From Halomicrobium mukohataei DSM 12286 (lineage in GTDB: Archaea > Halobacteriota > Halobacteria > Halobacteriales > Haloarculaceae): 32,000 nt of DNA. The stretch's first letter is position 1. Every line of letters begins with the position of its first letter. The notes beneath the pieces were generated by a model. It searched no databases. It saw nothing but the letters and a program-made list of their open reading frames with translations, and was not told where the DNA came from. The stretch is taken from positions 1,380,001-1,412,000 of the forward strand of contig NC_013202.1 of assembly GCF_000023965.1 (NCBI RefSeq). Direction: 5' to 3'. The translations under genes and the position numbers were made by a program. Below, piece by piece: positions 1,935 to 26,441 of this stretch.

Positions 1935-2307
1935 GTATCCACTTAATCAAGGGGGCTCCCTGTCATTACAAGTATCGCCTTCCAGTCTCGTCACTAGCAC
2001 CAAATACAAAAGCTCAGAGAATGAATAATACGAAGGAAAAATGCCACCACGAAACTGTGACTGAGAAATTTAGACACTGAATTCGAAATTTAACATCCAA
2101 CCGACACTCTATTGCTAATATTATGGCCATCTCTGATGAGTGATAAAATGGCAAATGATTTCTTTGAGTGCTTCTTGCTTGGGTTTACGGAAGAGCTCAG
2201 TCGATACCGTAGTTCGGAAATATCGAAACATCCAGACCGATTCGCACAGACCGCTCGAAGCAGTCGCTGTAAACACACTTACAACGACCGGGGAGAGACA
2301 GGAAAGT

Positions 2308-3372
2308 ATGCAAATTGAACACCGAGTAATCAGCCCTGACGAGCCCTACTTTATTGCCGAAGCTGGTGTCAACCACAACGGCGATCTGGAGATGGCCGAA
2401 AAGCTGATCGACGCCGCGGCAGACGCCGGGGCGGACGCAGTGAAATTCCAGACGTTCAGTGCGGATAGACTCGTTACCGAGGACACAGAGAAAGCGGACT
2501 ACCAGGAGGAGACGAGCGGAGAGGGGAGCCAGTACGAGATGCTGCGGAACTACGAACTGGACCGGGCGGCACACGAACGCTTGCAGAACCACTGCCAGAC
2601 GCGTGACATCACCTTCCTCTCGACCCCGTTCGACGTCCAGAGTGCCGATCTCCTCGCAGATCTCGGCGTGCCAGCTGTCAAGCTCGGCTCCGGCGAATTC
2701 GACAACCATCCGCTGCTGGAACACGTCGCCGAGCTGGGACTGCCGATGATCGTCAGCACGGGGATGGGAACGATGGACGAGGTCCGCGAGGCGCGGGACG
2801 TGATCCGCAGTGTCGACCCTAAGATCGACCTGGCATTTCTCCACTGCACGTCGGAGTATCCCTGCGACATCGAGGACATGAACCTCCGGGCAATGGAGCA
2901 GATGGACGAGGCATTCACGGAGCCAGTCGGCTACTCTGATCATACAACGTACCCAGAAACACCGTCTTTCGCGGTCTCGGGAGGGGCACAGATCCTTGAG
3001 AAACACTTCACGCTGGACAGAACTCTCCCGGGACCGGACCACAAGGCGTCCTTGGAACCGGACAAACTGGAACGGGCGGTCACGCTGTCGCGACTGGCCG
3101 CGCGGGCTAGAGGCAACGCTGAGAAACAGCCCACAGCGGGTGAACGACGAAACAAGTCCACGACAAGGAAGAGCCTGCACGCCGCTGTCGACCTCTCGGC
3201 GGGCGAGGTGCTATCCTCGAACGATATAAATATCCTGCGACCGACAGACGGACTGTCGCCAAAACACTACGACACCGTCATTGGGGCAGTCCTGGAGACG
3301 GACCTCGGTGCTGGCGACCCAATCACGACTGCCAACGTCGACGTGACTCTGGAGAGTGAGAGGGATGTTTGA
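2308..3372 (+). CDS. neuB: Nonulosonic acid synthase (NeuB/LegI/PseI family; by context a legionaminic-acid-type synthase)
   Basis: ATG 2308 is M57 of the tracked ORF. The N-terminus MQIEHRVISPDEPYFIAEAGVNHNGDLEMAEKLIDAAADAGADAVKFQTF is the NeuB-family signature. C-terminal SAF/antifreeze-like domain (INILRPTDGLSP...GDPIT). Confidence 0.9.
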   Translation: MQIEHRVISPDEPYFIAEAGVNHNGDLEMAEKLIDAAADAGADAVKFQTFSADRLVTEDTEKADYQEETSGEGSQYEMLRNYELDRAAHERLQNHCQTRDITFLSTPFDVQSADLLADLGVPAVKLGSGEFDNHPLLEHVAELGLPMIVSTGMGTMDEVREARDVIRSVDPKIDLAFLHCTSEYPCDIEDMNLRAMEQMDEAFTEPVGYSDHTTYPETPSFAVSGGAQILEKHFTLDRTLPGPDHKASLEPDKLERAVTLSRLAARARGNAEKQPTAGERRNKSTTRKSLHAAVDLSAGEVLSSNDINILRPTDGLSPKHYDTVIGAVLETDLGAGDPITTANVDVTLESERDV

Positions 3373-4659: not shown

Positions 4660-4679
4660 ACCTGTCCTATTGTGGCTAG

Positions 4680-4701
4680 TTCGGTAAAGGCTTCTACCGA
4701 A
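4680..4701. promoter_or_regulatory. Inverted repeat TTCGGTA-N8-TACCGAA in the divergent promoter region between the acetyltransferase and methyltransferase genes
   Basis: Perfect 7-bp arms at 4680-4686 and 4695-4701. An AT-rich AAGTATATGTATG box (about 4709-4721) lies 20-30 nt upstream of ATG 4741. Confidence 0.25.
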
Positions 4702-4740
4702 TGGACACAAGTATATGTATGCTACTGAACAACAGCAGGT

Positions 4741-7011: not shown

Positions 7012-8169
7012 TCAATATCGATTCGATTTGACAAGTAGTTCGGTGTCGAGGTCGATATTCGCAAGTACATCCGCGATTCGCGGGCCGCTGTTGCCGTCGC
7101 CGTAGTACGTGGTGTCGGTCTGCTCAAGGAGATCTGCCCGCCGTGTGTCGTCTGTGAGTCGCTGGACCGCCTCAACGATCTCGTCCACGTCGTGGTCGAC
7201 GTAAACGACGTTGCCGGCGTTAGTCCGTCCGGTCTGCCTGTTCCCGATATTGACCGCGGGCAGTGACAGAAACGGTGCTTCGAGAATTCCCGCACTCGAG
7301 TTACCGACGAGTGCCGTTGCGTACCTGAGGAGGTTCACGAACAGGTCTCGCTCGAAATTCTCGTGTACCGAAACGAAATCATAGTTCTGGTACTCGTGCA
7401 ATACGTCGATAATCTCCTCGCTTCCGGGGTCCGTGTTCGGATGGATAGCGACAGTCGGGATCGAGAGGTCCGCGAGCGCCTTCATCGTGGTTTCCATCTG
7501 CGAGCCGGCCGCCGTCCGCTCTGAGGAGAGAGGATGTTTGATTAAGACGAGAAAGGGTCCCTCGGTGATGTCGAACCCGATTTCGCGGGACAGCTCCTCG
7601 CGTGACAGTTCGGGCACGGTCCTAATACGGTCAAGCCCGGGGTTACCTACATCGAAGGTGCGAAATTCGTGTTCGCCCATCTGGACCAGTCGGTCGCGGT
7701 GGTCGGCACAAGCGGTCAGGTGAATATGTGTCATCTTCGAGACGGCGTGGCGAACCGGATCGTCCGCGTTGCCCCATACGGGGTCGCCGCCGAAGATGTG
7801 TGCGACGGGGATGTCGAGGTAGTTTCCGACGATAGCCGTCGCCAGGGGCTCCTCACGGTCACCAGCTACAAGGAGGATATCGGGCGACTCACGGCTCACG
7901 ACCTCCGTCAGGGAGGCAACCAGCGTCCCGACGCCTTTGGCACGCATGCGTTTGTCATCGCCGCGCAGCAGATACGCCACGGAGTCGACCACCTCAAAGC
8001 CATTCTGCTGGATGTAGGAGATCGTATCTCCATGGGTGTCAGCCACGTGTCCGCCACTGGCAACCACGCCGGCCGATAACTCTTCGTGGGCCTGAATAGC
8101 GTCGAGAGCGGGATAGAGAATATCGTACTCTGACCGGATTCCCGTTATCGCAAGAATGTCGCGCGGCAC
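7012..8169 (-). CDS. neuC: Hydrolysing UDP-/GDP-N-acetyl-hexosamine 2-epimerase (NeuC/LegG type)
   Basis: The N-terminus ILAITGIRSEYDILYPALDAI and the core VAHIFGGD...DDPVRHAVSKMTHIHL are NeuC-type. There is no in-frame ATG. GTG 8169 gives the canonical N-terminus. The tracked TTG 8244 would leave only 14 bp to the divergent ATP-grasp gene. Confidence 0.85.
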   Translation of the reverse strand: MPRDILAITGIRSEYDILYPALDAIQAHEELSAGVVASGGHVADTHGDTISYIQQNGFEVVDSVAYLLRGDDKRMRAKGVGTLVASLTEVVSRESPDILLVAGDREEPLATAIVGNYLDIPVAHIFGGDPVWGNADDPVRHAVSKMTHIHLTACADHRDRLVQMGEHEFRTFDVGNPGLDRIRTVPELSREELSREIGFDITEGPFLVLIKHPLSSERTAAGSQMETTMKALADLSIPTVAIHPNTDPGSEEIIDVLHEYQNYDFVSVHENFERDLFVNLLRYATALVGNSSAGILEAPFLSLPAVNIGNRQTGRTNAGNVVYVDHDVDEIVEAVQRLTDDTRRADLLEQTDTTYYGDGNSGPRIADVLANIDLDTELLVKSNRY

Positions 8170-8258
8170 ACTTAGACTGTGCTCAACACAATCGTAAATC
8201 CGTTTTGATTGCGGCACACTGGGAACATCTAATACGCCGACCAACGAAGCACCGGGGA

Positions 8259-10387: not shown

Positions 10388-11173
10388 TCACTTGATCGTC
10401 CAACCACCGTCGACGACGAGGTTGTGCCCGGTAACGTACCCCGCCGCGTCAGACGCCAAAAAGACGACAGGACCGACCATATCTTCCGGTGCAGCCATGC
10501 GCCCCAACGGCGTCCTCCGCTCGTAGTTCTCGACGAACTGCTCGTCCTGTCCGTCGAACACACCGCCCGGACTGACCGCATTCACTCGGACGTCGTACTC
10601 ACCGAGGTAGGAGGCCATGTACCGGACCAGGTTCAGGATACCCCCTTTGATCGCCGAGTACTCCACGGGACTGGTCATACCCGTCCCGTCGTAGACGCCG
10701 AAGTCGGGCGCTTGCACACCGTAGACTGAGCCGAGGTTGATGATACTCCCGCCGTCGGCTTGGTCTTTCATCGCCATCGACGCGCAGTACGAACTGTAGA
10801 AGTAGCTGTTCAGGTGGAGATCGACGTTCTCTCGCCAGTCTGCGAGTGTCATCTCCTCGTAGCGCTGCCCGTAATTCTTGTTCCGTGGGTACGCCGTGTT
10901 GACGAGGACGTCAAGCGAGCCGAACTCGTCGATTACAGACGCCACCGTCTCCTCGACCGCCTCGGCCTTCGTGATATCGAGCGATCGGAACTGTCCGTTC
11001 TCGCCGATCGAATCCGCGACCGCCTGTCCCTCTTCTGCTGCCGGATCGGCGACGACGACTGTTGCTCCGTGATCCGCGAGCCCCTCACAGATCTCTCGAC
11101 CCAGCAGTCCCGCGCCCCCGGTAACGAGGGCGACGTCACCGTCAAGATCGAACGCATCAATCAAAGTCGACAC
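10388..11173 (-). CDS. Short-chain dehydrogenase/reductase (SDR)
   Basis: ALVTGGAGLLGREI (TGxxxGxG), NTAY, and catalytic YSAIKGG (YxxxK). The start overlaps the cytidylyltransferase stop by 17 nt. Confidence 0.9.
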   Translation of the reverse strand: MSTLIDAFDLDGDVALVTGGAGLLGREICEGLADHGATVVVADPAAEEGQAVADSIGENGQFRSLDITKAEAVEETVASVIDEFGSLDVLVNTAYPRNKNYGQRYEEMTLADWRENVDLHLNSYFYSSYCASMAMKDQADGGSIINLGSVYGVQAPDFGVYDGTGMTSPVEYSAIKGGILNLVRYMASYLGEYDVRVNAVSPGGVFDGQDEQFVENYERRTPLGRMAAPEDMVGPVVFLASDAAGYVTGHNLVVDGGWTIK

Positions 11174-11876
11174 CCCACTCTTCGACGAGGAACTTCACGA
11201 GAGCGAAGTCGATGGGGCGATCGATGTCGACAGAGCGCTCCGGTGGCATCTCCGCGACGCCGGTTCGGTCGCCGTGAGTCGAGTCCGCATCAGCCAGGTA
11301 CGATCGCTCGTAGGTGTACACGGAGGCGTTCATCTCGTAGACGCTCGGCGCGTCCTGGCGCCTGACGACCTCGTCGTCAAGCGACTTCGAGAGCGACGCA
11401 TAGCCGTTCTCGTCCAGTTCGACCATGTTGAAGTACGGGTTCTTGTCGGCCTCCGTCACGGTGTAGGCGTTGGTGGCCTCCGTCCCGTGGACCCGCTGAA
11501 AGCAGTTCTCTATGTCCGCGACGAGGCGGAGCGGTGCCGTCGCGTCGAGATCGACGACGTAGTCGTAGGTCCGACCCGTGATGGACTCCATCTGCTCGTG
11601 TGCGTGCTGGATGACCGGGAGCTTGGCTGCTTCGTCCGTGGCGAGTTCGTCGGGACGGCGGAACGGGACCCGCGCACCGGCGTCCTCGGCCACCATCGAG
11701 ATTCCGTCGCTGTCGGTCGAGACGACAAGATCAGTCGTCCGATCCCACTGCTTTGCCTGGCGGATCGTGTGTGTGATCAGCGGCTGTCCGTCCAGGTCAC
11801 GCACGTTCTTGTCGGGGACGCCCTTCGACCCGCCCCGGGCACAGATCGTTACGAGCGTCGAAGCATCTACTGTCAT
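11157..11876 (-). CDS. neuA: CMP-nonulosonic acid synthetase (acylneuraminate cytidylyltransferase family, NeuA/LegF)
   Basis: ATG 11876 is M24 of the tracked ORF. ICARGGSKGVPDKNVRDLDGQPLITHTI is the CTP_transf_3 signature. ATGA overlap (11873-11876) with the upstream oxidoreductase stop. Confidence 0.9.
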   Translation of the reverse strand: MTVDASTLVTICARGGSKGVPDKNVRDLDGQPLITHTIRQAKQWDRTTDLVVSTDSDGISMVAEDAGARVPFRRPDELATDEAAKLPVIQHAHEQMESITGRTYDYVVDLDATAPLRLVADIENCFQRVHGTEATNAYTVTEADKNPYFNMVELDENGYASLSKSLDDEVVRRQDAPSVYEMNASVYTYERSYLADADSTHGDRTGVAEMPPERSVDIDRPIDFALVKFLVEEWGVDFD

Positions 11877-12823
11877 ACCTGATTCTCCTTTGCTTCGAGG
11901 GCAATTTCTAAAACCCTTTTTGCTTCGGGCACGTCGTTGTGGCACGGTTCTCGGGTTCGGACGTGCTCGAGGAAGTACCCCAGCTGGTCGCGAAACACGT
12001 CGTCGCGTGTGTAGTCGAACTCTCGGTGATCTGTCTCGGCTGGCGTTTCGATCGTCACCGTCTGTTCGTTCAGGTCGGCACGGACGACGCCGGCTTCGCC
12101 AATCACCACCAGTGTCCGCTTTGGCACACGTCGGAAGTAATCTAGATGGACACTACCGAGCGCGCCCGACCGCGTCCGGAGAACGATCTCAGCCACATCT
12201 TCGGTCTCGATCTCGAGAGAGCTGAGATGACCGATGTGTCCATCGACCGTCGCCACGTCGCCGAGCAACCAGTAGATATAGTCGAGTTCGTGAACGAGGT
12301 CGAGCACGACCCCGCCACCGAGTTCGGACGAAGCGCTGTACGAGTTCCGGTAGTCCTGCCCGGGTCGCCACTCTGGGAGGTGCGAGCCGGCGGTCGCACG
12401 AAAGGAGAGCACGTCACCGATCCTGTCTGCCCCCAGTGCATCCCGGACCGCCGCCAAGACGGGCGAAAACCGGAGCTGGCACCCCACGTACGTGATCAGG
12501 TCCCGTTCGTCGACGACCTGCTGGAGTTCCTCGACGCCAGCCAGTGAGTCGGATAGCGGCTTCTCGAGGAAGAGGTCACACCCACTGCGGGCACACCGTG
12601 TGGCGGTCTCAACGTGCAACGCGGTCGGGTTCGTGACGAACGCGACATCCGGGTCAACGGCGAGCCCCGCCTCTAGTGAGTCGTGCTCAACGATGCCCGC
12701 CGGCCCGTCCCCTTCTGCAGTGCCGCTCCGGTAGGCGTGTACCTCGAACTCCTCCGGCCGTTCATCGAGAAGTCGCAGATGCCGCCGACCGATCGATCCG
12801 AGACCGGTAAACAGTATACGCAT
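11873..12823 (-). CDS. Gfo/Idh/MocA-family NAD(P)-dependent oxidoreductase
   Basis: MRILFTGLGSIGRRHLRLL N-terminal Rossmann motif, EKPL motif (FLEKPLS) and the C-terminal alpha/beta domain. Confidence 0.85.
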   Translation of the reverse strand: MRILFTGLGSIGRRHLRLLDERPEEFEVHAYRSGTAEGDGPAGIVEHDSLEAGLAVDPDVAFVTNPTALHVETATRCARSGCDLFLEKPLSDSLAGVEELQQVVDERDLITYVGCQLRFSPVLAAVRDALGADRIGDVLSFRATAGSHLPEWRPGQDYRNSYSASSELGGGVVLDLVHELDYIYWLLGDVATVDGHIGHLSSLEIETEDVAEIVLRTRSGALGSVHLDYFRRVPKRTLVVIGEAGVVRADLNEQTVTIETPAETDHREFDYTRDDVFRDQLGYFLEHVRTREPCHNDVPEAKRVLEIALEAKENQV

Positions 12824-14833: not shown

Positions 14834-14835
14834 CG

Positions 14836-16228: not shown

Positions 16229-17164
16229 GCCTTGTTGAATCCAGGGATGGCGTAGTGATCACTCCTTGATGGCTTGTTCGAGGTTGTAGACGGCCACGGT
16301 CAGCACCAGTTCTCTGAATTCGCGGTACCACGCGCTCGGCCCGACAGCGGAGCCGAATAGGCGGTTGATGGCCGAGAATGCGGTCTCGGCCATCCATCGC
16401 TGCCCGTAGAGATCGCTGTCCAACCGTGCGTTGTGGGCGTGATCGTAGTGCGCAAACAGCCGGTGTCTGATGACCGGCCGGACGCCTTCGGAACGGAGTG
16501 CGTCCCGCAGTGACTGATCGTCGTAGCCTTTGTCACCGGCGAGATCTCGATTTCAGCGGTATTGCGCAGTGCCACCCGACGGCCGACCTGTGTATCGTGG
16601 GGCCAGTGTGCCGAACAGTGGAGGTCGAGGACGGCACACGACGCCGTGTCTACGAGGGCCGTCGTTTTCAGCGTGCGTATGTGGCGATCCGACCGGTCGA
16701 CGTAGTGGCTGGATGCCGCTTCACGGTCGAAAAATGTGGCATCCAGCGCCCCATGATTGCCGGGATCGCAGCGGGTCGCCGACCGACGGAGCAGTTGCCG
16801 CCAGATACGGGTCGGCACCCGTTCGAAGGACCGCCACAGCGTCGAGGGGGCCGGGAAGTCGGTCCGAGCCAACTGTAACAGGCCACGAACGCGATCCATC
16901 TCACTCGCCCAATCGACGATCTCGCGGTAGCTCGCGTCCATGTGGTTCCGCAAGAAATGCAGCGTCAGATGCTTCCAATCCGCAAATCCGTTGCCAGCCG
17001 GGTCACTCACCACCGCCGTGGGGCTGGCGGCACAGCGTTTTTGAGCCAGTGATGCGGCTTGTGTAACGAAGCGGAAGAGTGGCATTGGTACATTCACTCT
17101 CTCCGCTTCGCTTCCACCTTCACAGCAACGCTATCCGCTCGCAGTCATCGGATTCAACAGAGTA
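16229..17164 (-). mobile_element. IS5-family insertion sequence (about 0.94 kb)
   Basis: Terminal IRs GCCTTGTTGAATCC (16229-16242) and GGATTCAACAGAGT (17150-17163), with core TGTTGAATCC perfect. Contains one DDE transposase gene. No target duplication recognisable, and the boundaries are uncertain by a few nt. Confidence 0.7.
16259..17085 (-). pseudogene. IS5-family (DDE_Tnp_1) transposase with one frameshift
   Basis: The N-terminal part MPLFRF...DREAASSHYVDRSDRHIRTLKTTALVDTASCAVLDLHCSAHWPHDTQVGRRVALRNTAEI is in one frame. The conserved C-terminus LAGDKGYDDQSLRDALRSEGVRPVIRHR...GQRWMAETAFSAINRLFGS...VYNLEQAIKE is in the -1 frame and ends at TGA 16259-16261. The switch is within 16541-16556, with no slippery heptamer. 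Confidence 0.75.
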
Positions 17165-17244: not shown

Positions 17245-18204
17245 ATGCATAGAATAATCCACCGCCCACTTGAAATCCTCCGTGAAGGCGGTCCGAGAGC
17301 ACTCTTCCGGAAGTCGTGTTCGAAACTCAATAGGCAGTTTTATCGGAACTTCACTACCGGTCATTTCAATTCTTCGGGAACAAGCGTGTTCGAACGGGAC
17401 TGGGACAATCTCCTAATCCTAGATGCTTGTCGGTACGACATCTTCGAAGAAGTGAACTCTTTCCGCGGTGACCTCGAGACACATTGCTCACTCGGATCAT
17501 CGAGTCGTGAGTTCGTCAGGGCGAACTTCGCTGACCGGACACTCCATGACGTTGTTGTCGTATCAGCCAATGGATGGTATAAAAAAATATCCGACACCTC
17601 TGGAAAAATAAATGTTGATGTTCACGATCTGATTGTCGTAGATAACAAAAGCGTAGAGTCCCACAAGTCTGATATTGACACGGTGCGACCGGATCGTGAA
17701 TGGATTCTCCCCGAAGCAGTTACAAATGAAGCCTGCGATGCCATCGAACGATATCCGAACAAACGTATTATAGTCCACTATCACCAGCCCCATACGCCGT
17801 ACATCGGACCGACAGGCAAGGAGTACGCAGGGGAGCTACCGCAGAAGTTTGACGGCAAAGAGGAGTTACGGACATCCCATGAGATTCTCCGCAGAGCGTA
17901 TCGAGAAAACTTAGAGATTGTTCTGGAGGAAGTCGGAGGTCTCTATCCAGAACTGACCGGGAAAACGGTCATCTCCGCAGATCACGGCGATCTACTTGGG
18001 GAACGTGGGTTTCCGATTCCTGTCCGGGAATACGGGCACCCCTCCCAGGCGTATCGTGAGGAACTCGTCCGAGTCCCCTGGTTCAACTTACCATTCGATG
18101 AGCGAAAAGAGATTATAGCGGAGTCACCATCGGATAATAGGAAAAACGATCTCTCCATTGACGAGGTCAATGAACGACTGAAGAAACTGGGATACAAGAT
18201 TTGA
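17245..18204 (+). CDS. Uncharacterised cytoplasmic alkaline-phosphatase-superfamily (sulfatase/PglZ-like) protein, paralogue 1
   Basis: RDWDNLLILDACRYD (metal-ligand Asp region), SLGSSSREFV (candidate nucleophile segment), HYHQPHTPYIGPTG, SADHGDLLGE and VPWF. No TM segment. The AT-rich box TTTTAAAAAATAT (about 17216-17230) lies 15-29 nt upstream of the ATG. Confidence 0.55.
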   Translation: MHRIIHRPLEILREGGPRALFRKSCSKLNRQFYRNFTTGHFNSSGTSVFERDWDNLLILDACRYDIFEEVNSFRGDLETHCSLGSSSREFVRANFADRTLHDVVVVSANGWYKKISDTSGKINVDVHDLIVVDNKSVESHKSDIDTVRPDREWILPEAVTNEACDAIERYPNKRIIVHYHQPHTPYIGPTGKEYAGELPQKFDGKEELRTSHEILRRAYRENLEIVLEEVGGLYPELTGKTVISADHGDLLGERGFPIPVREYGHPSQAYREELVRVPWFNLPFDERKEIIAESPSDNRKNDLSIDEVNERLKKLGYKI

Positions 18205-18224
18205 GGAGGACTCGTTCCGGTTGT

Positions 18225-19451
18225 ATGATCGAAACACTTGAAAGCGCGGTTAATCGAAAAAGCACCCGTCAGGAGCGGTGGATATTCTATTCAATTATTG
18301 TGATTAGCGTCCTCTCGTCCTCGGTGATTCTCCCAAGGCTGGCCGGTATCGTGCTTCTCGTTGGCACGTATGCCGTGTTTATCCTGATAACCTTCTCTCG
18401 ACGGGGATACTTCCTGATAGGTCCTCACTACGCCTTTTTTGCACTAGCTTTGCTATCGTCTTTAATGGTCTTGAACCACGTGATGGGAAAGGTCGGAGAT
18501 ATCACTCACGTTCTTTTCCCGGCAGTCACGGTCTTTCTATTGGTTGCGAATCTATTCGTCATCCCTCACGTGATCAATAGCGAGTACTTTGCTTTCATCA
18601 CCAGCCGCGTCTCTGCTGTCGTCGTTATCGTTGGTTTACTGATGCTTGTTTTTGGTGACATCAGTTTACTCTGGTTTGAACTTCAAAACTGGCCGGGCAC
18701 TGACCAAGTGTATTATTTCGGGGAGCTTCACCCATTGCGGTCGATCTATCGTGGAAGCCAGAACAACACAGCTGTCCTGTTATTCGTGGGGTTCCTGGCG
18801 TCAATCTATCAACTTGTCCAAGAGAAAACCTCTGTGTACATCGCGTTATCGGTGATAAACGGCGTCGGGTTGTATCTAACCCACAGTCGTGGCGGAATCG
18901 GCGTAGCCCTGATCGGTTTTTCCCTCATTTTTCTGTATTTAGTGTATAGGTACGAGGCCGTAGGGGTAGTCACCATATCGGGGGGAGTGCTATTCTTGGC
19001 AGGTATATTGACGTATTCCAGTATCTTCCCCGGGCCGAGCTGGTTCGACGTCGTGAATTTGAATGACCGACAGGAGATCTGGCGTGCGGGATACAAAGCC
19101 TTCAAGCAAAAGCCTGCTCTAGGATACGGGGTGAAAGAGACGGCTGATATTATAGAACTGTATCTTCCTGAAAACAAGCGAGGGCACTCCATTCACAATG
19201 CCTATTTTCGAATATTTTTATATACTGGATTTATTGGGGGTATAACATATATGGCCTTTATTTTCTACAGCCTCATAGATACTGTTTTTGACGATAGAAT
19301 CAATATCTTTATTTTCGCCCTCGCTGTAGCATTTGCGGTTCATCACTTTCAAGGGGGAGCACCGCTCTTTGGAGCAAATTTCAAATCTGTCAGTATCGGA
19401 CTAACCTTTGGGTACCTCATAAACGGTCGATACGACTTCTCCGAGGGCTGA
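18225..19451 (+). CDS. Wzy_C / O-antigen-ligase-family polytopic membrane protein (polymerase, ligase or O-oligosaccharyltransferase-like)
   Basis: About 10 hydrophobic segments. LYLTHSRGGIGVALIGF and the loop EIWRAGYKAFKQKPALGYGV...GHSIHNAYFRIFLYTGFIGG are Wzy_C hallmarks. ATG 18225 is preceded by GGAGGA (18205-18210). Very AT-rich. Confidence 0.75.
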   Translation: MIETLESAVNRKSTRQERWIFYSIIVISVLSSSVILPRLAGIVLLVGTYAVFILITFSRRGYFLIGPHYAFFALALLSSLMVLNHVMGKVGDITHVLFPAVTVFLLVANLFVIPHVINSEYFAFITSRVSAVVVIVGLLMLVFGDISLLWFELQNWPGTDQVYYFGELHPLRSIYRGSQNNTAVLLFVGFLASIYQLVQEKTSVYIALSVINGVGLYLTHSRGGIGVALIGFSLIFLYLVYRYEAVGVVTISGGVLFLAGILTYSSIFPGPSWFDVVNLNDRQEIWRAGYKAFKQKPALGYGVKETADIIELYLPENKRGHSIHNAYFRIFLYTGFIGGITYMAFIFYSLIDTVFDDRINIFIFALAVAFAVHHFQGGAPLFGANFKSVSIGLTFGYLINGRYDFSEG

Positions 19452-19586: not shown

Positions 19587-20570
19587 GTGACAGAACTGCT
19601 GAAAAAAGCGAAAAATGCGTATCACCGCGAAGGTCCTACAGGAATTGTCAACGGAGGCTTAGATTTACTTCTAAGCACGTCGACATCCGCGTATTGCAAG
19701 AAGAAATCTATCGAGCAGAACTGGTATATAAAAAGATTGAATGAAAAAGGTCTCGGGACCCCACTCAATCGTTCCATCTTGACCCGGAAGAAGTCCAGCA
19801 ACACGGTTTTTATCCTCGGTTCTGGAAGCTCAATAAATAGGATATCCGAAGAAGAATGGGATGTAATCGACAATCACGATTCGATGGGGCTGAATCGTTG
19901 GCCTATCCACGATTTCTCACCTACCTATCTGGTTTTTGAGATACCTTCATTGAATGCAGGTCAAGAGATAAGAAAACAGTATTGGGAGTTATTAGATATG
20001 AAAAAAAGAGACTACGAGGAGACACAGCTGATTCTTAAAGATGTGGACCGGTTCTTTCATACATCTTCTGTAGATGCAGTTCCGGATTGGTTCACTACGG
20101 GGATTATGTTGTCTCCTGACATCGAACTTCCTCCCTTGTTTGGAGATTCCAGAGAGCGATTTCGAACCGTATTGCGGTACCTGGACAACCAGAATTACCT
20201 CACCCAAGATGGCCGAATTAATCAATTATTCAAGAAACGGGGTTCGGTCAGCTACACACTCTTTCTCGCCACGGTTCTAGGATACGACCGAATCGTTCTA
20301 TGTGGTGTCGACATGGTGGACTCGAAGTATTTTTGGGACGAGCGGAGAGGTCAACTGAACGAAGAAGATATTCCTATCCCGGAGCCGAACATGGAACGGA
20401 ACCCCGAGGAAGTTCACAAGACGAACGACGCTTCAAGACAAGGAATCCCCCTCGAACAGATCATCTACGATATCGACGAAGAACTATTACGTCCGAACGG
20501 GATCGAATTGTATACCGAAACGAAACGCTCTGCACTTCATCCAAAGGTACCCCACTTCGAAGTCCAGTAG
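19587..20570 (+). CDS. Putative nonulosonic-acid (sialyl-type) transferase, Cst-II (GT42)/DUF115 (Maf/MptE)-like
   Basis: VFILGSGSSINRISEEEWDVIDNHDSMGLNRW parallels the GNGPS nucleotide-sugar-binding start of Cst-II/Maf proteins. SYTLFLATVLGYDRIVLCGVDMVDSKYFWD parallels the G-x-D segment. GTG start; no alternative in-frame ATG nearby. Confidence 0.45.
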   Translation: MTELLKKAKNAYHREGPTGIVNGGLDLLLSTSTSAYCKKKSIEQNWYIKRLNEKGLGTPLNRSILTRKKSSNTVFILGSGSSINRISEEEWDVIDNHDSMGLNRWPIHDFSPTYLVFEIPSLNAGQEIRKQYWELLDMKKRDYEETQLILKDVDRFFHTSSVDAVPDWFTTGIMLSPDIELPPLFGDSRERFRTVLRYLDNQNYLTQDGRINQLFKKRGSVSYTLFLATVLGYDRIVLCGVDMVDSKYFWDERRGQLNEEDIPIPEPNMERNPEEVHKTNDASRQGIPLEQIIYDIDEELLRPNGIELYTETKRSALHPKVPHFEVQ

Positions 20571-20700: not shown

Positions 20701-21709
20701 CCGGTTCGCTCTTGCGAAGGAGATTGTTGATAGCGATGGCTGGAGCTGAAAGTCGAAGAGGGCAAGGGCACCGCGCTAGCGGTGCCCGATATGTTCCCAA
20801 TAAGCCGGTTCGTGTCGGAATCGGCTGCAGCGGACCTGCTGGAACAGGTTCGCTGGCGTGATGGCGTCGAGTGCCCCCGCTGCCGTTCTGACCTGACGGT
20901 CAGAAACGGCAGCTACCGGGTGTATCAACGGTATCTGTGTAAGAATTGCGGTCGCACGTTCAACGACAAGACCGACACGATCTTCGCTCACTCGAAGCTG
21001 AAGCTCAAAGAATGGTACTTCACGATCTACGTGTTCTTACGGTTCAACACGAGTATTCGGCAAATCGAGGCAGAGCTTGATTGTTCCTACCGGACGGTGA
21101 GACGGCACGTCGAGCAGTTCGCCAGAACTCTCGACGCGCCTTCGATTACGCTGTCTGGACCGGTCGAAATCGACGAAGTGTACGTCTCTGCTGGTCTCAA
21201 AGGCCGCGAGCGTGACCAGGAGTCGCGCTCGCGTGGCCTGTCCACGCGTGGACGGGGATCGTACGACGGCGACAAACCGCCGGTGTTCACGCTCGTCGAT
21301 CGTGGTTCGGACGAGCGGTACGTCGTGCCAGCGAAATCCGCTGACGAATCGACCGTTCGACTCCTGCTTGCTGACCACGAAGAGGAGTCACTGACCGTCT
21401 ATACGGACGGATTTCGGGCCTACGACCCACTAGAAGACGACGACTCATTCACCCGCAAATACGTCGTCCACAGCGACGGTGAATACGCTGATGGCGAAGT
21501 ACACGTCAACGGCTGCGAGAGCCACGCGTCGCTGACGCGACGGTGGCTCTCGCCCCATCGAGGCGTCTCGAAAGACAAGCTAACGCCGTATCTCAGAGCC
21601 TTCGAACTCCGCCGTGAACTCTACAGAAAACCAGGTGACGAAGCACTCAAACATGCTCTCAACGCCGCACTCTGAAAATCAACAACGTGCTTCACAAGAG
21701 CGACACCGG
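20701..21709 (+). mobile_element. IS1595-family insertion sequence (about 1.0 kb)
   Basis: Imperfect terminal IRs of about 33 bp: CCGGTTCGCTCTTGCGAAGGAGATTGTTGAT (20701-) versus the reverse complement of 21677-21709, CCGGTGTCGCTCTTGTGAAGCACGTTGTTGAT. Single transposase gene. No clear target duplication. Confidence 0.75.
20791..21675 (+). CDS. IS1595-family transposase (N-terminal zinc ribbon + ISXO2-like DDE domain)
   Basis: LEQVRWRDGVECPRCRSDLTVRNGSYRVYQRYLCKNCGRTFNDKTDTIF (Zn ribbon), and VEIDEVYVSAGLKGRERD...TVYTDGFRAYD. ATG 20791; the tracked GTG 20782 is the alternative. Confidence 0.9.
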   Translation: MFPISRFVSESAAADLLEQVRWRDGVECPRCRSDLTVRNGSYRVYQRYLCKNCGRTFNDKTDTIFAHSKLKLKEWYFTIYVFLRFNTSIRQIEAELDCSYRTVRRHVEQFARTLDAPSITLSGPVEIDEVYVSAGLKGRERDQESRSRGLSTRGRGSYDGDKPPVFTLVDRGSDERYVVPAKSADESTVRLLLADHEEESLTVYTDGFRAYDPLEDDDSFTRKYVVHSDGEYADGEVHVNGCESHASLTRRWLSPHRGVSKDKLTPYLRAFELRRELYRKPGDEALKHALNAAL

Positions 21710-22436: not shown

Positions 22437-23366
22437 ATGTATTCAATAGAGCAAGTAAAAGAGGGTGTAAAAAGCCCCTCGTTGTTTAAAAGGGGGATGA
22501 TCAATATATGTTGGCGTGGCATATCAACGGTATCAAGAAAGATGCTCGGACAAAATGATCCTCCGATCCCCGAACGGGACTGGGACAATTTGCTCCTCCT
22601 GGATGCCTGTCGATACGATCTCTTCGAAGAACTCAATTCGCTTCCGGGCGAACTCAACTCCTACTATTCTGTTGCGTCCAACACGACTGAGTACGTCCAG
22701 AGGACGTTCAATGGGAATGAATTCCCGGACATCGTCTGCGTCACATCAACTCCGAAGTACTACAAGCCGAATGTCGAAGACAGTTTTCACGACATCATCC
22801 ATGTCTGGAGGGAAGATTGGAATACAGAACTTGGGACGATTACTGCAGAGACGATGAACAAGCACGTCCTCCAAGCGATTGACGAGTACCCGAGTAAGCG
22901 GATTCTCGCACATTACATCCCTCCACACCAGCCTTTTATTGGACCAACCGGCCAAGAAATTCCTCACGAGGTTAGATTCTCCGGGGACGTCATCGCTCAG
23001 GACACGGAAGCACCGAACCTGTGGGGGAGCATTCGAAACGGAGAAATTGAGCCGGACCGAGTCAGGCAAGCCTACCGGGAGAACCTCGAACTGACCCTCC
23101 CAGCGATTGAGGAGATCCTTGACGAACTTCCTGGGAAGACCGTTGTAACGTCCGACCACGGTAATGTGTTCGGATCATTCAACGAGTGGGGCGTCGTCGG
23201 GCATCCGCCATATCGTCACATTGAACCGTTAATCAAAGTGCCGTGGCTCGTTCACTCCAATGGAGACCGGAAGGATATCTACGAAGGATCAATCGACAGA
23301 GACAACACGGATATAAACCACGAACTCGTGGAAGAGCGACTCGGGGATCTCGGCTACCTCGAATAG
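22437..23366 (+). CDS. Uncharacterised cytoplasmic alkaline-phosphatase-superfamily protein, paralogue 2
   Basis: Collinear with 17245-18204: RDWDNLLLLDACRYDLFEE, SVASNTTEYV, HYIPPHQPFIGPTG, AYRENLELT, TSDHGNVFG, VPWLV and ERLGDLGY. Confidence 0.55.
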   Translation: MYSIEQVKEGVKSPSLFKRGMINICWRGISTVSRKMLGQNDPPIPERDWDNLLLLDACRYDLFEELNSLPGELNSYYSVASNTTEYVQRTFNGNEFPDIVCVTSTPKYYKPNVEDSFHDIIHVWREDWNTELGTITAETMNKHVLQAIDEYPSKRILAHYIPPHQPFIGPTGQEIPHEVRFSGDVIAQDTEAPNLWGSIRNGEIEPDRVRQAYRENLELTLPAIEEILDELPGKTVVTSDHGNVFGSFNEWGVVGHPPYRHIEPLIKVPWLVHSNGDRKDIYEGSIDRDNTDINHELVEERLGDLGYLE

Positions 23367-24116: not shown

Positions 24117-26441
24117 ATGAGCGATGAGGGCGACGTGAACGCGCTTCTCGATGAGCGTCCGGATCTCCGAGACGCCCTCGATACAGTTATGTATGTCGAC
24201 GAACAATATGACACTTGGACGTTCGAAGACGTACCGATCGCTTCCGGTCCATTCGGTGAACTCGTTTCCAGCGGTGTCGTAGAGTCTGTCGGTAACGAGT
24301 ACCGACTCACGAACCCTGACGTCACGGCAGCGGCGCTCTCAAGTGGCCCAACAGACCAAGCGGAGTCGCTCGATTTCGGCGATCCCCTCTCTGGATTCGA
24401 GTGGCCAATGTTCGACCGAATAACCTCCCTTGCACTCACCGCCGCGCTCGCCGTCGTCGCACTCGTTCGCGCCCACCCTCTCGGAAGCGTCTACCGGGGT
24501 GGTAACGTCGTCCTCTCGGGCAACGATCCCTACTACTACCGGTACTGGGTCGAGCGGGTCCTCGCGGAGAGCCAGTCGGTGTTCAGTCTTGACACCCTCG
24601 CTGCGTTACCAGGCGGTGTCACGAATGGCGAACCACTGCTGGTCGCGACGCTGTGGTGGGTCTCGGAACTCCTCGGTGACGGCGCGGCTGTCGTCGGCGA
24701 CGTGATGGCGTGGTACCCCGTCGTCACGGCAGTCGTCACGGCGATTTTCGTCTACCTGCTGGCAGTCGCTGTTACCGGCGACAGACGCGTCGGTCTCGCG
24801 GCAGTCCTCCTCTTCGCGATTATCCCCGGCCACGCAATGCGGACCAGCCTGGGTTTCGCGGATCACCACGCCTTCGACTACCCGTGGCTGGCGGCGACGG
24901 CCTACGCGCTGACGGTACTCGCAAGCGTCGACCGGGACGCAGTCACGACCTCGAAAACGTGGCTCGCGAGCGCCCTCCTCGGGATCGTGATCGCCGGCCA
25001 GACGCTGGCCTGGGAGTCCGCGCCGCTGCTCATCGCGGCGGTCGGCCTCGCAGTCGCCGCTGTCGCCCTGGCAGCGGTCGATCAGGGTGAGTCCCCGCTC
25101 GTCCCCGGAGCGCCGATCCTCACCGGCCTCACGATCGCTGCTGGCCTCGCCGCGGCGGGCCACATCTTCGTCGGCTGGCACACGCCACGCGTCGCGTTCT
25201 CGCCGGCGCTGGTCCTCGGTGGGGTCGCCCTCGCACTCCTCGTCGCCGAAGCCGTCCACCGGACGACCGACGATGCGCGCCACCTCCTGGTCATCGATGC
25301 CGTTCTCGCTCCGATTGGCATCCTCACCTTCCGCGAAGCTCGCCCGGAAGACTGGGAGGCGCTCCTGCGGGGCACCGGACGGATCACGGCCGAGCGCAAC
25401 ATCGCCGAGACGGTCGGCCTGTTCGATCCGGACTCCCTGGGAGTCTTGCTCTTGCTGGGGTTTACGCTCGTCATCGCGATCCCGGCGATGGTCGCTGGCG
25501 TCCAACGTGCTCGAACGGCACCGAAGTGGGCGGTGCCGACCGCGTACGTCTGGTACTTCTTCGGACTCGCGACGCTGTCGGTCCGTTTCGTCGGCGAACT
25601 CGCGCCGGTCCTCGCGGTGTTCGCGGGCATCGGTTTCGTGCGACTCGCGGCCTGGATCGACGCTGTCGAGGCGCTCTCGGTCGATGCGACCCGCGCGGCG
25701 CTCCCTGGACTGACCGTGCCGGATCGACGGACGCTCGGGACGCTCACCCTGATCTTCCTGCTCGTCGGCAGCCTCGGAATCGTCCAAGTGCCGGTCAAGA
25801 CCGGCCAGCTCACGGTCGAGGACAGCACCTACCAGAGCGCTGCCTACGTCGCGAACCACTCGGCCCAGCTCAACGAATCCTATCCGGAGAACTACGTCCT
25901 GAGCCAGTGGGGTCGCAACCGCGTGTACAACTACTTTGTCAACGGTGCATCGGAGAGTTACAGCTACGCTCGACAGACGTACGCCGAGTTTCTCGCGAGC
26001 CCCAATGCCGACGAGTGGTACAGTCGGTTCGACGGCCGCGTCGGCTACGTCGTCCTCTCCGAGGACGTCAACACCACCGGTGGGACTGCCTACGCACACC
26101 TCACAGACCACTACGGGAGTCGAACCGCAGATCGGGACGGACTCGCTCACTTCCAGCCACTGTACGTCACGGCAGGCGGCGAGAAACTCACCTACCAGGT
26201 CGTCCCCGGTGCGAACCTGACGGGGCAGGTCGCGCCCAACGAGACAGTCACAGTCCAGACGGACGTGACGATCCCTGGTGCGTCGTTCACGTACGAACGA
26301 CAGACGACGGCCGACGCGGCCGGTCACTACAGCGTCCGCGTTGCCAACCCCGGCACGTACACCATTGAGACGGCCAACGAGACGCGGGAAGCGACCGTCC
26401 AGGCCGGCGCTGTCCGGAACGGTACGGCTGTCGAAGGCTGA
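24117..26441 (+). CDS. aglB: STT3/AglB-family oligosaccharyltransferase homologue with a non-canonical WWDYG position
   Basis: About 100-aa cytoplasmic N-domain followed by about 13 TM segments. First-loop motif GNDPYYYRYW (aa 135-144), DHH (aa 249-251) and TIXE-type NIAE (aa 428-431). The WWDYG position reads SQWGRN (aa 596-601, nt 25902-25919). Short C-terminal domain ending in a carboxypeptidase-regulatory-like beta-sandwich. TATA-like TTTATT at 24088-24093. Confidence 0.8.
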   Translation: MSDEGDVNALLDERPDLRDALDTVMYVDEQYDTWTFEDVPIASGPFGELVSSGVVESVGNEYRLTNPDVTAAALSSGPTDQAESLDFGDPLSGFEWPMFDRITSLALTAALAVVALVRAHPLGSVYRGGNVVLSGNDPYYYRYWVERVLAESQSVFSLDTLAALPGGVTNGEPLLVATLWWVSELLGDGAAVVGDVMAWYPVVTAVVTAIFVYLLAVAVTGDRRVGLAAVLLFAIIPGHAMRTSLGFADHHAFDYPWLAATAYALTVLASVDRDAVTTSKTWLASALLGIVIAGQTLAWESAPLLIAAVGLAVAAVALAAVDQGESPLVPGAPILTGLTIAAGLAAAGHIFVGWHTPRVAFSPALVLGGVALALLVAEAVHRTTDDARHLLVIDAVLAPIGILTFREARPEDWEALLRGTGRITAERNIAETVGLFDPDSLGVLLLLGFTLVIAIPAMVAGVQRARTAPKWAVPTAYVWYFFGLATLSVRFVGELAPVLAVFAGIGFVRLAAWIDAVEALSVDATRAALPGLTVPDRRTLGTLTLIFLLVGSLGIVQVPVKTGQLTVEDSTYQSAAYVANHSAQLNESYPENYVLSQWGRNRVYNYFVNGASESYSYARQTYAEFLASPNADEWYSRFDGRVGYVVLSEDVNTTGGTAYAHLTDHYGSRTADRDGLAHFQPLYVTAGGEKLTYQVVPGANLTGQVAPNETVTVQTDVTIPGASFTYERQTTADAAGHYSVRVANPGTYTIETANETREATVQAGAVRNGTAVEG

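Follow-up and report, generated by a model that had tools for sequence, protein, structure and literature searches.

Results and Discussion

Gene Content of the Locus

The window analyzed here is a 32,000-nt stretch of DNA from Halomicrobium mukohataei DSM 12286. It encodes a NeuB-type nonulosonic acid (NulO) synthase, a NeuC/LegG-type epimerase, and a CMP-NulO synthetase, together with the target of this study, a candidate CMP-NulO:glycan transferase (Table 1). The epimerase presumably marks the pathway as Leg/Neu-type and not Pse-type. The Wzy_C gene is co-oriented with the target and lies directly upstream of it. In other haloarchaea (L001 and L003; tblastn), a homolog of the downstream sulfatase/PglZ-like gene directly follows the target homolog on its 3′ side; here the IS1595-family transposase gene stands between the two. 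A TATA-like sequence, ACTTATTC, is found about 27 nt upstream of the GTG start.

Table 1. Positions of the target gene, its sequence elements, and neighboring genes in the window
Feature	Position (nt)	Strand	Remarks
NeuB-type nonulosonic acid synthase with SAF domain	2140..3372	+	Pfam PF03102, E 3.8e-86
NeuC/LegG-type UDP-sugar 2-epimerase	7012..8244	-	Pfam PF02350, E 2.4e-70
CMP-NulO synthetase (CTP_transf_3)	11157..11945	-	Pfam PF02348, E 1.2e-18; makes the presumed donor
Wzy_C (O-antigen ligase/polymerase-like) membrane protein	18201..19451	+	Pfam PF04932, E 2.6e-15; 69 hydrophobic windows
Candidate CMP-nonulosonic acid:glycan transferase gene (target)	19587..20570	+	Full-length ORF, 327 aa, GTG start; predicted compact GT42/DUF115-superfamily fold
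Basic N-terminal extension, aa 1-70	19587..19796	+	Mostly three helices, aa 2-53 (DSSP on model)
Predicted N-terminal donor-binding motif F75-I-L-G78-S-G80-S-S82 ... D98-S-x-G101-x-N103-x-W105	19806..19901	+	Within VFILGSGSSINRISEEEWDVIDNHDSMGLNRW, aa 74-105
Internal ATG (M138)	19998..20000	+	Start of the 190-aa assembly gene call P0004
K217-R-G-S220	20235..20246	+	Pairs with Cst-II R129-I-T131-S132 (hhalign, MAFFT)
Central motif S-Y-x-L-x-L-A-x-x-L-G232-Y-x-x-I-V-L-C-G240-V-D242 ... Y248-F249	20250..20339	+	Within SYTLFLATVLGYDRIVLCGVDMVDSKYFWD, aa 222-251
H277	20415..20417	+	Candidate general base equivalent to Cst-II H188
IS1595-family transposase	20782..21675	+	Pfam PF12762, PF12760; just downstream of the target gene, which is intact
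Sulfatase/PglZ-like (alkaline-phosphatase superfamily) ORF	22437..23366	+	Weak PF00884/PF08665; paralog of 17245-18204
Divergent AglB/STT3 oligosaccharyltransferase paralog	24117..26441	+	Pfam PF02516, PF18079

We considered other open reading frames of the window as transferases. ORF 5545-6738 (397 aa), within the Leg cluster, was set aside; it has no Pfam match and, by eye, its sequence looks transposase-like. The paralogs at 17245-18204 and 22437-23366 recur in haloarchaeal NulO loci, but they have only weak sulfatase/PglZ similarity and were rejected as well. Profile searches of the source genome found no protein of the tested NulO-transferase families PF06002, PF04464, PF05159, PF07922, or PF07388, which backs an earlier statement that no other obvious CMP-sugar-dependent transferase is present.

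Reading Frame and N-Terminal Region

A preliminary description of this DNA had quoted three motif strings from the target reading frame. The frame has exactly the limits listed in Table 1, and its translation contains all three strings. The gene call of the source assembly, P0004, is only 190 aa long and equals residues 138-327; because it begins at M138, the N-terminal nucleotide-binding motif is lost from it. The 327-aa reading is supported by P0001, an 84% identical protein that matches from residue 1. We conclude that the shorter call is an annotation error that hides the N-terminal motif.

The N-terminal region had also been described as basic, and residues 1-70 indeed contain 14 Lys and Arg compared to 5 Asp and Glu, giving a net charge of about +9. 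In the alignment, most bacterial relatives have a shorter extension than the members of the haloarchaeal clade. The extension may associate with the membrane surface. Hydropathy analysis found no transmembrane segment in the 327-aa protein (maximum KD19 1.44), indicating that the protein would be cytoplasmic and share a compartment with CMP-sugars.

Profile Searches Define a Family Related to GT42

Searches with the single target sequence against Pfam, NCBIfam, and the PDB (phmmer) returned nothing significant. The only Pfam match was PF01973 (12.1 bits, E 0.17, aa 222-244; cutoff 34.6 bits), NCBIfam gave no match, and PF06002, which has a threshold of 25 bits, did not match the target at E ≤ 10. 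The only PDB match, AP-2, was dismissed as a chance hit. A six-frame search of the source genome with PF06002 likewise gave 0 matches at E ≤ 1, as did the control genomes in the same search. Because single-sequence searches were uninformative, profiles were needed.

We collected 90 homologs and built a family profile and alignment from 44 of them. The best eight matches of this profile in the PDB were all Campylobacter GT42 enzymes, including Cst-I (E 9.8e-4) and Cst-II (E 3e-3). When the family was aligned by hhalign with a 26-member GT42 profile, the probability was 91.3% (E 9.5e-7), with family residues 72-327 covering GT42 residues 2-227 in the greedy alignment. PF01973 touches 34/44 relatives (best E 3.5e-7), and PF06002 touches 4/44 weakly (best E 6e-3); three relatives carry a precomputed PF01973 match. 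Since the target falls below the curated thresholds of both families, it belongs to an uncurated sister family.

An exhaustive phmmer search retrieved 1177 cluster representatives at E ≤ 1e-3, of which 638 reach E ≤ 1e-10. Members occur in Halobacteria, Bathyarchaeia, Acidobacteriota, Pseudomonadota, Bacteroidota, Verrucomicrobiota, Bacillaceae, and Cyanobacteria, in more than 1000 clusters at 50% identity. The family is large, extends across many bacterial phyla and into a few archaea, is distinct from PF06002, and is only peripheral to PF01973.

Conserved Motifs and Their Counterparts in Cst-II

The second motif string, placed about 140 aa after the first in the preliminary description, follows it by 148 aa. 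The third, EEVHKTNDASRQG, comprises aa 274-286 (nt 20406-20444). Eight residues are invariant among the 44 aligned homologs (F75, S79, G80, S82, G240, D242, F249, and L317), and W91, S99, G101, N103, W105, H108, P112, G232, C239, Y248, H277, S315, and P319 are at least 90% conserved. Conservation across these homologs argues that the three motifs are not due to chance.

The motif from F75 to W105 pairs with Cst-II I5-I-A-G8-N-G10-P-S12 ... D26 ... N31-x-F33 in hhalign (mact 0.05) and in MAFFT L-INS-i and E-INS-i alignments. The central motif pairs with Cst-II G144-Y ... G152-I-D154 ... Y162 in the HMMER profile search against the PDB, hhalign, and MAFFT. Between them, K217-R-G-S220 is matched to the donor-contacting loop of Cst-II (1RO7). 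In the joint MAFFT alignments, G78/G80/S82, N103, K217, and S220 correspond to Cst-II G8/G10/S12, N31, R129, and S132, and G240, D242, Y248, and H277 correspond to G152, D154, Y162, and H188. Four donor-site residues of Cst-II are changed in the target (N9 to S79, P11 to S81, T131 to G219, and Y156 to V244).

The motif correspondences that the preliminary description had proposed hold in both profile-profile and joint alignments. The match of H277 is exact in the joint MAFFT alignments only: it shares a column with H188 in L-INS-i and E-INS-i, and hhalign places it a few residues off, with a 3-residue indel. The donor site of Maf/DUF115 proteins resembles that of Cst-II (bioRxiv 10.1101/2020.06.03.131540). 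We conjecture that D242 is equivalent to one of the catalytic acidic residues, E324 or D415, of Magnetospirillum magneticum Maf.

Predicted Fold

The AlphaFold (AF2) model of the 327-aa protein is a single domain with a pLDDT of 92.1 and a pTM of 0.92, and it is predicted to have a sialyltransferase-type modified GT-A (single Rossmann-like) fold. Its best Foldseek match in the PDB is Cst-II (1ro8_A; E 1.6e-6, prob 1.00, identity about 16%), with moderate TM-scores of 0.39/0.50. The second-best match is Methanocaldococcus jannaschii MptE/HPPK (8sd5, E 4.8e-4). Maf 5mu5 also matches (prob 0.97, TMt 0.16), over 195 columns of its 632 residues, and the human GT29 sialyltransferases ST8SiaIII and ST6GalNAc2 are among the further matches. 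An unrelated fold was not seen, and this ranking agrees with the GT42/DUF115 layout proposed earlier. The loop bearing H277 has a lower pLDDT (79-84), comparable to the lid of Cst-II.

The MptE match raises the question of whether the protein is a glycosyltransferase at all. An MptE-like kinase or pyrophosphokinase, or another nucleotide-binding enzyme for NulO biosynthesis or modification, would suit both this match and the sole Pfam match of the target, which is to an MptE-like family, and linkage to NulO genes alone fits a biosynthetic enzyme equally well. We nevertheless regard such an activity as highly improbable. The genome encodes a bona fide MptE elsewhere (52.4 bits, 281 aa), with which the family reaches a probability of 0.5% in hhalign, versus 74.6% with the single Cst-II sequence and 91% with the GT42 profile. 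Most donor-contacting residues of Cst-II and, in the joint MAFFT alignments, the candidate catalytic His are conserved, and the Leg, Pse, and Neu pathways are not known to need an MptE-like kinase.

Genomic Context and Distribution

We examined 80 loci of the family from Archaea and many bacterial phyla. NeuB, NeuA, or NeuC is encoded within 10 kb of the family gene in 64 of them and, when only the 48 loci with full flanks are counted, in 43. Individually, NeuB is found at 55 loci, NeuA at 44, and NeuC at 31, and most of these genes (113/130) are co-oriented with the family gene. Metagenomic relatives from hypersaline samples show the same linkage. The co-occurrence with neuA and neuB that the preliminary description had put forward as a check is therefore seen across relatives, and each of the three Halobacteria genomes with a family member is NeuB-positive. 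This neighborhood fits a transferase and a NulO-modifying enzyme alike.

Among 150 immediate neighbors, the other Pfam families include GT4, GT2, Wzx, Wzt, Wza, Wzy_C, and GT9, pointing to polysaccharide assembly. Flagellin is absent from the top 25 Pfam families of these neighbors, and Pfam scans found no flagellin or archaellin genes in the 32,000-nt window. These surroundings bear on whether the protein could act as a Maf-like transferase, placing a NulO directly onto Ser or Thr of an S-layer glycoprotein, archaellin, or pilin. The PF01973 (Maf_flag10) matches in most relatives and the fold match to Maf are consistent with that activity, one relative has an N-terminal TPR domain, a protein-binding module, and the donors of Maf enzymes are CMP-Leg, CMP-Pse, CMP-Neu5Ac, and CMP-Kdo (bioRxiv 10.1101/2020.06.03.131540). 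However, the target consists of one catalytic domain that lacks the flanking Maf domains and aligns over 195 columns of Maf, the solved structures nearest to it in sequence and fold belong to glycan-directed GT42 enzymes, and its neighbors assemble polysaccharides in the absence of flagellin. Direct protein modification is therefore unlikely.

Within Halobacteria, the family is present in 3 of 251 genomes, with the gene 10-18 kb from NeuB in each. Only 3 of 52 NeuB-positive genomes have it; as the other 49 do not, it is not a general archaeal solution. In 16 NeuB-positive haloarchaeal loci lacking the family, searches as permissive as E ≤ 1 retrieved no member of either the family or GT42, and across haloarchaeal NulO loci a GT42 HMM matched only members of the target's family. 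The haloarchaeal copies form a conserved clade that spans four families and always lies within NulO loci.

This rarity could also be read as a sign that the gene is silent or decaying, carried along on an IS-ridden island gained by horizontal transfer and functionless in this strain. The target gene lies in a low-GC accessory block with IS elements on either side, its GC content is 0.46 compared to 0.58-0.63 in the Leg genes, the pI of its product is atypical (5.5), and the automated gene call is truncated. Yet the 327-aa frame is intact and retains every invariant and near-invariant residue of the family, the 84% identical homolog is full length, and the clade is conserved in NulO loci, all of which make a functionless passenger very hard to credit.

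Proposed Function

Legionaminic and pseudaminic acids cap the surface glycans of many bacteria and of haloarchaea, and a Leg-capped N-glycan is also present on a haloarchaeal virus spike. Few of the NulO transferases are known. The Leg transferase of protein glycosylation has been stated to be unidentified (PMC6137143), and Dubois et al. found no NulO transferase in Bacillus subtilis (2020, PMC7439481).

We consider it likely that the target protein is a transferase that moves a NulO, a Leg-type derivative, from its CMP-sugar onto a lipid-linked glycan. The GT42-like fold, the key residues, and the adjacency to NulO genes together suggest that it is probably the long-sought enzyme attaching legionaminic acid to a surface glycan. 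Its earlier designation as the best candidate for the NulO-adding enzyme is supported by the same evidence, with a Leg donor and an N-glycan precursor as the presumed substrates.

In the mechanism that we propose, the protein would be an inverting, metal-independent glycosyltransferase of the GT42/Cst-II and Maf/DUF115 superfamily that works in the cytoplasm, either in soluble form or as a peripheral protein. CMP and the nonulosonate would be bound by the G78-S-G-S-S82 loop, N103, K217/S220, and G240-x-D242, with Y248 contacting the phosphate, and H277 on a flexible lid would deprotonate the acceptor hydroxyl. The neighboring pathway would supply the CMP-activated Leg-type donor, and the acceptor would be a sugar residue in an oligosaccharide carried on a lipid, probably dolichol phosphate, with flipping and surface transfer coming afterward. 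We infer CMP-Leg as the donor, a glycan and not a protein as the acceptor, H277 as the base, and a membrane-proximal site of action.

The AglB/STT3 paralog may act downstream by using the NulO-capped lipid-linked glycan, a link to the target that we draw tentatively. Instead of the AglB N-glycan, the product might be a Wzy_C-dependent polymer or an O-linked glycan put together by the adjacent Wzy_C protein, or the enzyme might be bifunctional or oligomerizing, joining one NulO to another in the manner of the α-2,8 reaction of Cst-II. The Wzy_C gene upstream would suit this, as would Wzy_C homologs beside the family in L002 and G153, the Wzx/Wzy, Wzt, and Wza loci of bacterial relatives, the GT38 polysialyltransferase that twice adjoins them, and the divergence of the nearby AglB. 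On the other side, Leg has been described in only one haloarchaeal glycan, an N-linked pentasaccharide in which it is terminal (PMC6137143), and AglB-type genes are clustered with the locus here. We view these alternatives as possible but doubtful.

For the family as a whole, we lean toward compact glycan-directed legionaminyl, pseudaminyl, or sialyl transferases that comprise a minimal GT42/Maf core and supply the missing NulO-capping enzyme in many organisms, with the target as the first archaeal representative. If the assignment to NulO transfer is true, the target would be the first legionaminic acid transferase to be identified in archaeal protein glycosylation and the family would merit its own CAZy GT family, with more than 1000 clusters of "hypothetical" proteins gaining an annotation. 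It would also provide new enzymes for chemoenzymatic synthesis of Leg and Pse glycosides and show that the GT42/Maf catalytic core can stand alone as a module that Bacteria and Archaea have exchanged. As a concrete, well-supported candidate with named putative catalytic residues, the protein is directly testable.

Comparison with Known Systems

MptE, the archaeal 6-hydroxymethylpterin diphosphokinase and founder of PF01973 (8SD5), shares the Rossmann-like fold and a similar glycine-rich loop with the target but performs ATP-dependent pyrophosphoryl transfer and has no link to NulO genes. The Tannerella forsythia enzymes Tanf_01245 and TFUB4_00887 resemble the target in their location beside a CMP-NulO pathway and in their proposed role, the addition of a terminal Pse or Leg derivative to an oligosaccharide bound to protein (PMC5420450). 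These TagB-like enzymes differ from the target in their unrelated GT-B/TagB fold with D/E-D/E-G and HP motifs, and no PF04464 protein is present in the source genome.

Maf (PF01973, 5MU5) belongs to the same superfamily as the target, is likewise linked to NulO biosynthesis genes, and shares the use of CMP-Leg, CMP-Pse, or CMP-Neu5Ac, which is predicted for the target. At about 600 aa or more, Maf proteins carry additional domains at both termini and attach the sugar straight to Ser/Thr of flagellin, whereas the target is a stand-alone domain, and its loci are of the polysaccharide type and, unlike those of Maf, have no flagellin genes.

The best profile and fold match is to Cst-II and Cst-I of Campylobacter jejuni (GT42, PF06002; 1RO7, 1RO8, 2P2V). 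Like the target, these are single-domain modified GT-A proteins without a DxD motif, encoded beside NeuB/NeuC/NeuA and surface-glycan glycosyltransferases, and Cst-II shares its N-terminal G-x-G-x-S loop and C-terminal S-x-L. Unlike Cst-II, the target has about 90 extra residues inserted between the two motifs, and it lacks Y156, as noted above. It has a basic N-terminal helical extension where Cst-II has a C-terminal membrane-association segment, and whereas Cst-II uses CMP-Neu5Ac and lipooligosaccharide, the target, in its archaeal host, probably uses CMP-Leg and a dolichol-linked glycan.

Assignment of the Target to a Sister Family of GT42

The target, a 327-aa ORF with a GTG start in the ORF listing of the window, belongs to an uncurated sister family of GT42 (PF06002) and PF01973 (MptE-like, formerly DUF115) and shares their fold. 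Searched alone, it gave a single Pfam signal, PF01973 at aa 222-244 (E 0.17, 12.1 bits; cut-off 34.6), and no match in NCBIfam or the PDB; by curated scores it lies below both the GT42 and PF01973 thresholds. A profile of its family had Campylobacter GT42 sialyltransferases as its eight best PDB matches (E 9.8e-4 for Cst-I 2p2v and about 3e-3 for Cst-II 1ro7 and others), the alignment covering the block S-Y...L-G-Y-x-x-I-x-L-x-G-x-D...Y. In A1, an alignment of 44 family members, 34 touched PF01973 (best 3.5e-7) and 4 touched PF06002; these models overlap, as several true GT42 proteins match both.

With hhalign, the family scored 74.5 % against a single Cst-II sequence (identical to chain 1ro7_A) and 91.3 % (E 9.5e-7) against a 26-member GT42 alignment, and a greedier setting aligned target residues 72-327 to Cst-II 2-227. 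In the reciprocal test, a GT42 HMM matched family members only among all ORFs of 24 archaeal nonulosonic acid (NulO) loci (23 haloarchaeal, one Bathyarchaeia). An MptE-like kinase is highly improbable, since the genome has a bona fide MptE, against which the family profile scored 0.5 % versus 91.3 % for GT42. The chemistry of the sister family is most likely GT42-like.

An AlphaFold2 model of the target built with A1 has a mean pLDDT of 92.1 and a pTM of 0.92. Its top Foldseek match in the PDB was Cst-II 1ro8_A (E 1.6e-6, prob 1.00), followed by M. jannaschii HPPK/MptE 8sd5 (E 4.8e-4). Only Cst-II and MptE reached E ≤ 0.001; later matches, including Magnetospirillum Maf 5mu5 (prob 0.97) and human ST8SiaIII and ST6GalNAc2, were weaker and mixed with low-probability unrelated folds. 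The GT42/DUF115 fold anticipated in the preliminary description was thus recovered, rather than an unrelated one. The moderate TM-scores of the model against Cst-II (0.39/0.50) probably reflect two features of the target, its N-terminal helices (aa 2-53) and ~90 residues inserted between its two motifs.

A word-indexed search returned 90 relatives, every one labelled "hypothetical", and an exhaustive phmmer search of 1.84 billion cluster representatives returned 1177 family representatives at E ≤ 1e-3 and 638 at E ≤ 1e-10; we found no paper describing the family in the literature. Domain variants occur among proteins P0136, P0161, and P0223: two have the domain duplicated in tandem (573 and 544 aa), and one is fused to an N-terminal TPR (599 aa).

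Gene Call and Conserved Residues

The source assembly calls a 190-aa protein (P0004), identical to target residues 138-327, that begins at an internal ATG (M138) and leaves out the first 137 aa with the nucleotide-binding motif. The true start is the GTG at 19587 and not M138, as indicated by protein P0001, which matches at 84 % identity from residue 1 onward, and by numerous full-length relatives.

All three peptide strings quoted in the preliminary description occur in the target (aa 74-105, 222-251, and 274-286), as does its basic N-terminal region (14 K+R versus 5 D+E in residues 1-70). No transmembrane segment was detected in the target (maximum 19-residue Kyte-Doolittle mean 1.44). Residues F75, S79, G80, S82, G240, D242, F249, and L317 are invariant in A1, and conservation reaches at least 90 % at W91, S99, G101, N103, W105, H108, P112, G232, C239, Y248, H277, S315, and P319. 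The target retains every one, so the quoted motifs represent the conserved core of the family and not chance strings. With these residues intact, a silent passenger gene is very unlikely.

Two independent MAFFT alignments, L-INS-i and E-INS-i, in which the two families were aligned together, agreed in pairing target G78, G80, S82, D98, N103, K217, S220, G232, G240, D242, Y248, H277, and S315 with Cst-II G8, G10, S12, D26, N31, R129, S132, G144, G152, D154, Y162, H188, and S215, respectively. Most residues of the G-x-G-P-S..N and G-x-D elements of GT42 thus have counterparts, in G78/G80/S82, N103, and G240/D242; Cst-II Y156 is replaced by V244. In Cst-II, H188 serves as the general base and Y162 as a phosphate ligand, as established in the 1RO7 work. 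On the proposed equivalence of a His segment with the Cst-II catalytic His region, the alignment methods differ: H277 occupies the H188 column in both MAFFT alignments, but hhalign sets it a few residues off owing to a 3-residue indel. The loop that carries H277 in the AlphaFold2 model has a lower pLDDT (79-84) and perhaps resembles the Cst-II lid.

Gene Content of the Window

Features of the window, assigned from Pfam where indicated
Feature	Position	Strand	Basis
ABC ATPase	3-713	+	Pfam
GT2	722-1690	+	Pfam
NeuB	2140-3372	+	Pfam
PIG-L deacetylase	3356-4036	+	Pfam
PglD-like acetyltransferase	4042-4773	-	Pfam
Methyltransferase (SAM)	4741-5493	+	Pfam
IS/transposase-like ORF (397 aa)	5545-6738	+	By eye
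NeuC-like 2-epimerase	7012-8244	-	Pfam
ATP-grasp	8205-9215	+	Pfam
HAD	9208-9894	+	Pfam
SDR	10388-11173	-	Pfam
CMP-NulO synthetase	11157-11945	-	Pfam
Gfo/Idh/MocA	11873-12823	-	Pfam
IS/transposase-like ORF	13112-13609	-	
DegT aminotransferase	13703-14839	-	Pfam
PseB/LegB-type dehydratase	14836-15861	-	Pfam
IS/transposase-like ORF	16300-17097	-	
Sulfatase-like ORF	17245-18204	+	Pfam
Wzy_C membrane protein	18201-19451	+	Pfam
Target	19587-20570	+	
P0004 (assembly call)	19998-20570	+	
IS1595 transposase	20782-21675	+	Pfam
Second sulfatase-like ORF	22437-23366	+	Pfam
AglB/STT3 paralogue	24117-26441	+	Pfam

The only glycosyltransferase in the window besides the target is a GT2, a class not known to act on CMP-sugars. 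PF06002, PF04464 (TagB-like, Tannerella type), PF05159 (KpsS/C type), PF07922 (GT52), and PF07388 (GT38) are all missing from the genome, in agreement with the suggestion that the window holds no other obvious CMP-sugar transferase. Several enzymes of the legionaminic acid (Leg) cluster go beyond the needs of plain Leg5Ac7Ac (PIG-L deacetylase, SAM methyltransferase, ATP-grasp ligase, HAD phosphatase, SDR, and Gfo/Idh/MocA), which suggests that the real donor is a re-acylated, methylated, or epimerised Leg derivative.

The target (GC 0.46, GC3 0.50, pI 5.5) is part of a low-GC accessory block; the Leg genes of the window have a GC of 0.58-0.63 and a pI of 4.1-4.8. Four IS/transposase-like ORFs interrupt the glycosylation island: two are supported by Pfam (a DDE IS240 fragment and IS1595), one has weak DDE_Tnp_1 matches only, and the 397-aa ORF has no Pfam match.

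Linkage to NulO Genes

A related-locus search yielded 80 homologue loci from Halobacteria, Bathyarchaeia, Bacillaceae, Acidobacteriota, Pseudomonadota, Verrucomicrobiota, Bacteroidota, Cyanobacteriota, and others, in which NulO genes were sought by tblastn with the pathway proteins of the window. NeuB was present in 55/80, CMP-synthetase in 44/80, and NeuC in 31/80; at least one of these occurred in 64/80 loci and in 43 of the 48 loci whose flanks reached 9 kb or more on each side. NulO genes were co-oriented with the target homologue in 113 of 130 cases (median gap 3-4 kb). Given roughly one locus per genome and a NeuB genome frequency of 52/251, NeuB would be expected in ~1 % or fewer of random 20-kb windows. 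The co-occurrence with neuA/neuB proposed as a check is thus borne out, also in Halobacteria, where all three family-positive genomes among 251 carry NeuB, 10-18 kb from the family gene.

The 150 nearest non-NulO neighbours included, by Pfam, GT4 (14), GT2 (9), Wzx-type flippases (8), NTP-transferase+CBS (8), ABC/Wzt (6), PseG-like (6), Wza (4), GT9 (3), Wzy_C (2), and GT38 polysialyltransferase (2) genes; in alignment A5, a GT38 gene adjoins each of two family members. Flagellin families were absent from the 25 commonest families of these neighbours. Direct protein O-glycosylation of the Maf type is unlikely, given that the target is single-domain and that flagellin or archaellin linkage is lacking.

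Pathway types at family loci include Leg/Neu (with NeuC), Pse (PseB without NeuC), and apparently Neu5Ac (Bacillaceae), and the family probably covers several donor specificities. Four Bacillaceae loci (L004, L007, L012, and L017; Metabacillus, Halalkalibacter, Neobacillus, and Niallia) have the family member immediately next to NeuB-NeuC-NeuA and no DegT/PseB homologues, apparently a Neu5Ac-type pathway.

Distribution and Origin in Halobacteria

NeuB occurs in 52 of the 251 genomes, and 49 of these lack the family; 16 sampled loci of this kind (L122-L137) contained no relative even at E ≤ 1 and no GT42-like relative. The family is thus one haloarchaeal solution among several. Maximum-likelihood analysis placed five haloarchaeal copies, which come from four families, in a single clade (SH-aLRT 97) surrounded by bacterial sequences. 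Another copy (G153:C1:558465-559322; loci L120/L121) falls outside it with Bathyarchaeia and bacterial sequences, a position that suggests a separate second uptake by a haloarchaeon. Taken together, tree and composition favour acquisition by horizontal transfer, with spread in genomic islands.

In two metagenomic relatives of this clade, NulO genes are followed in turn by a sulfatase gene, the homologue of the target, and GT4 or ABC genes. A sulfatase/PglZ-like (alkaline-phosphatase superfamily) gene lies directly 3' of the homologue in L001 (11131-) and L003 (11070-), and a sulfatase-family gene directly 5' in L001 and L139 (L139:8692-9903); in the window, the IS1595 insertion parts the target from its downstream sulfatase/PglZ-like partner. 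Such genes are also present in haloarchaeal NulO loci without the family. Wzy_C (O-antigen ligase/polymerase-like) membrane proteins recur likewise with or without it (the window; L002:4718; L120:7282/9598; L128; L130; L131). Of 17 other sampled NeuB-positive Halobacteria, 9 (L118, L122, L124, L125, L130-L133, and L135; 56-74 % identity) also keep the ABC ATPase adjacent or close to NeuB, which suggests that a step of export or flipping connected with the NulO glycan is ABC-dependent.

Proposed Function and Comparison with Known Systems

The observations of the preliminary description are confirmed, and its reading of the target as a candidate NulO transferase is supported by every computational test run. 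The fold, the conserved residues, the residue matches with Cst-II, and the linkage to NulO genes are observations; our model has the target as a cytoplasmic, inverting, metal-independent transferase, peripherally associated with the membrane presumably through its basic N-terminus. CMP-NulO, with a Leg derivative as the inferred donor, would be held by the G-S-G-S-S loop, N103, K217/S220, and G240-x-D242, with Y248 contacting the phosphate. H277 would act as general base, and NulO would be added to a sugar hydroxyl of what we infer to be a lipid-linked oligosaccharide before export. A variant of this model, in which the product is another glycan (e.g., Wzy_C-dependent or oligo-NulO), is less probable.

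The Leg transferase of protein glycosylation was stated in 2018 to be unidentified in any organism (PMC6137143), and no such enzyme was found in B. subtilis in 2020 (PMC7439481); later reviews (PMC11407970, PMC10384203) contribute nothing further on a NulO transferase in archaea. The Bacillaceae family members may be relevant to the enzyme that transfers NulO in the spore crusts of Bacillus (PMC7439481). Among known systems, the Tannerella Pse/Leg transferases are GT-B/TagB-like (PMC5420450), and the Maf enzymes have a described structural relation to Cst-II (PMC9298399; bioRxiv 10.1101/2020.06.03.131540).
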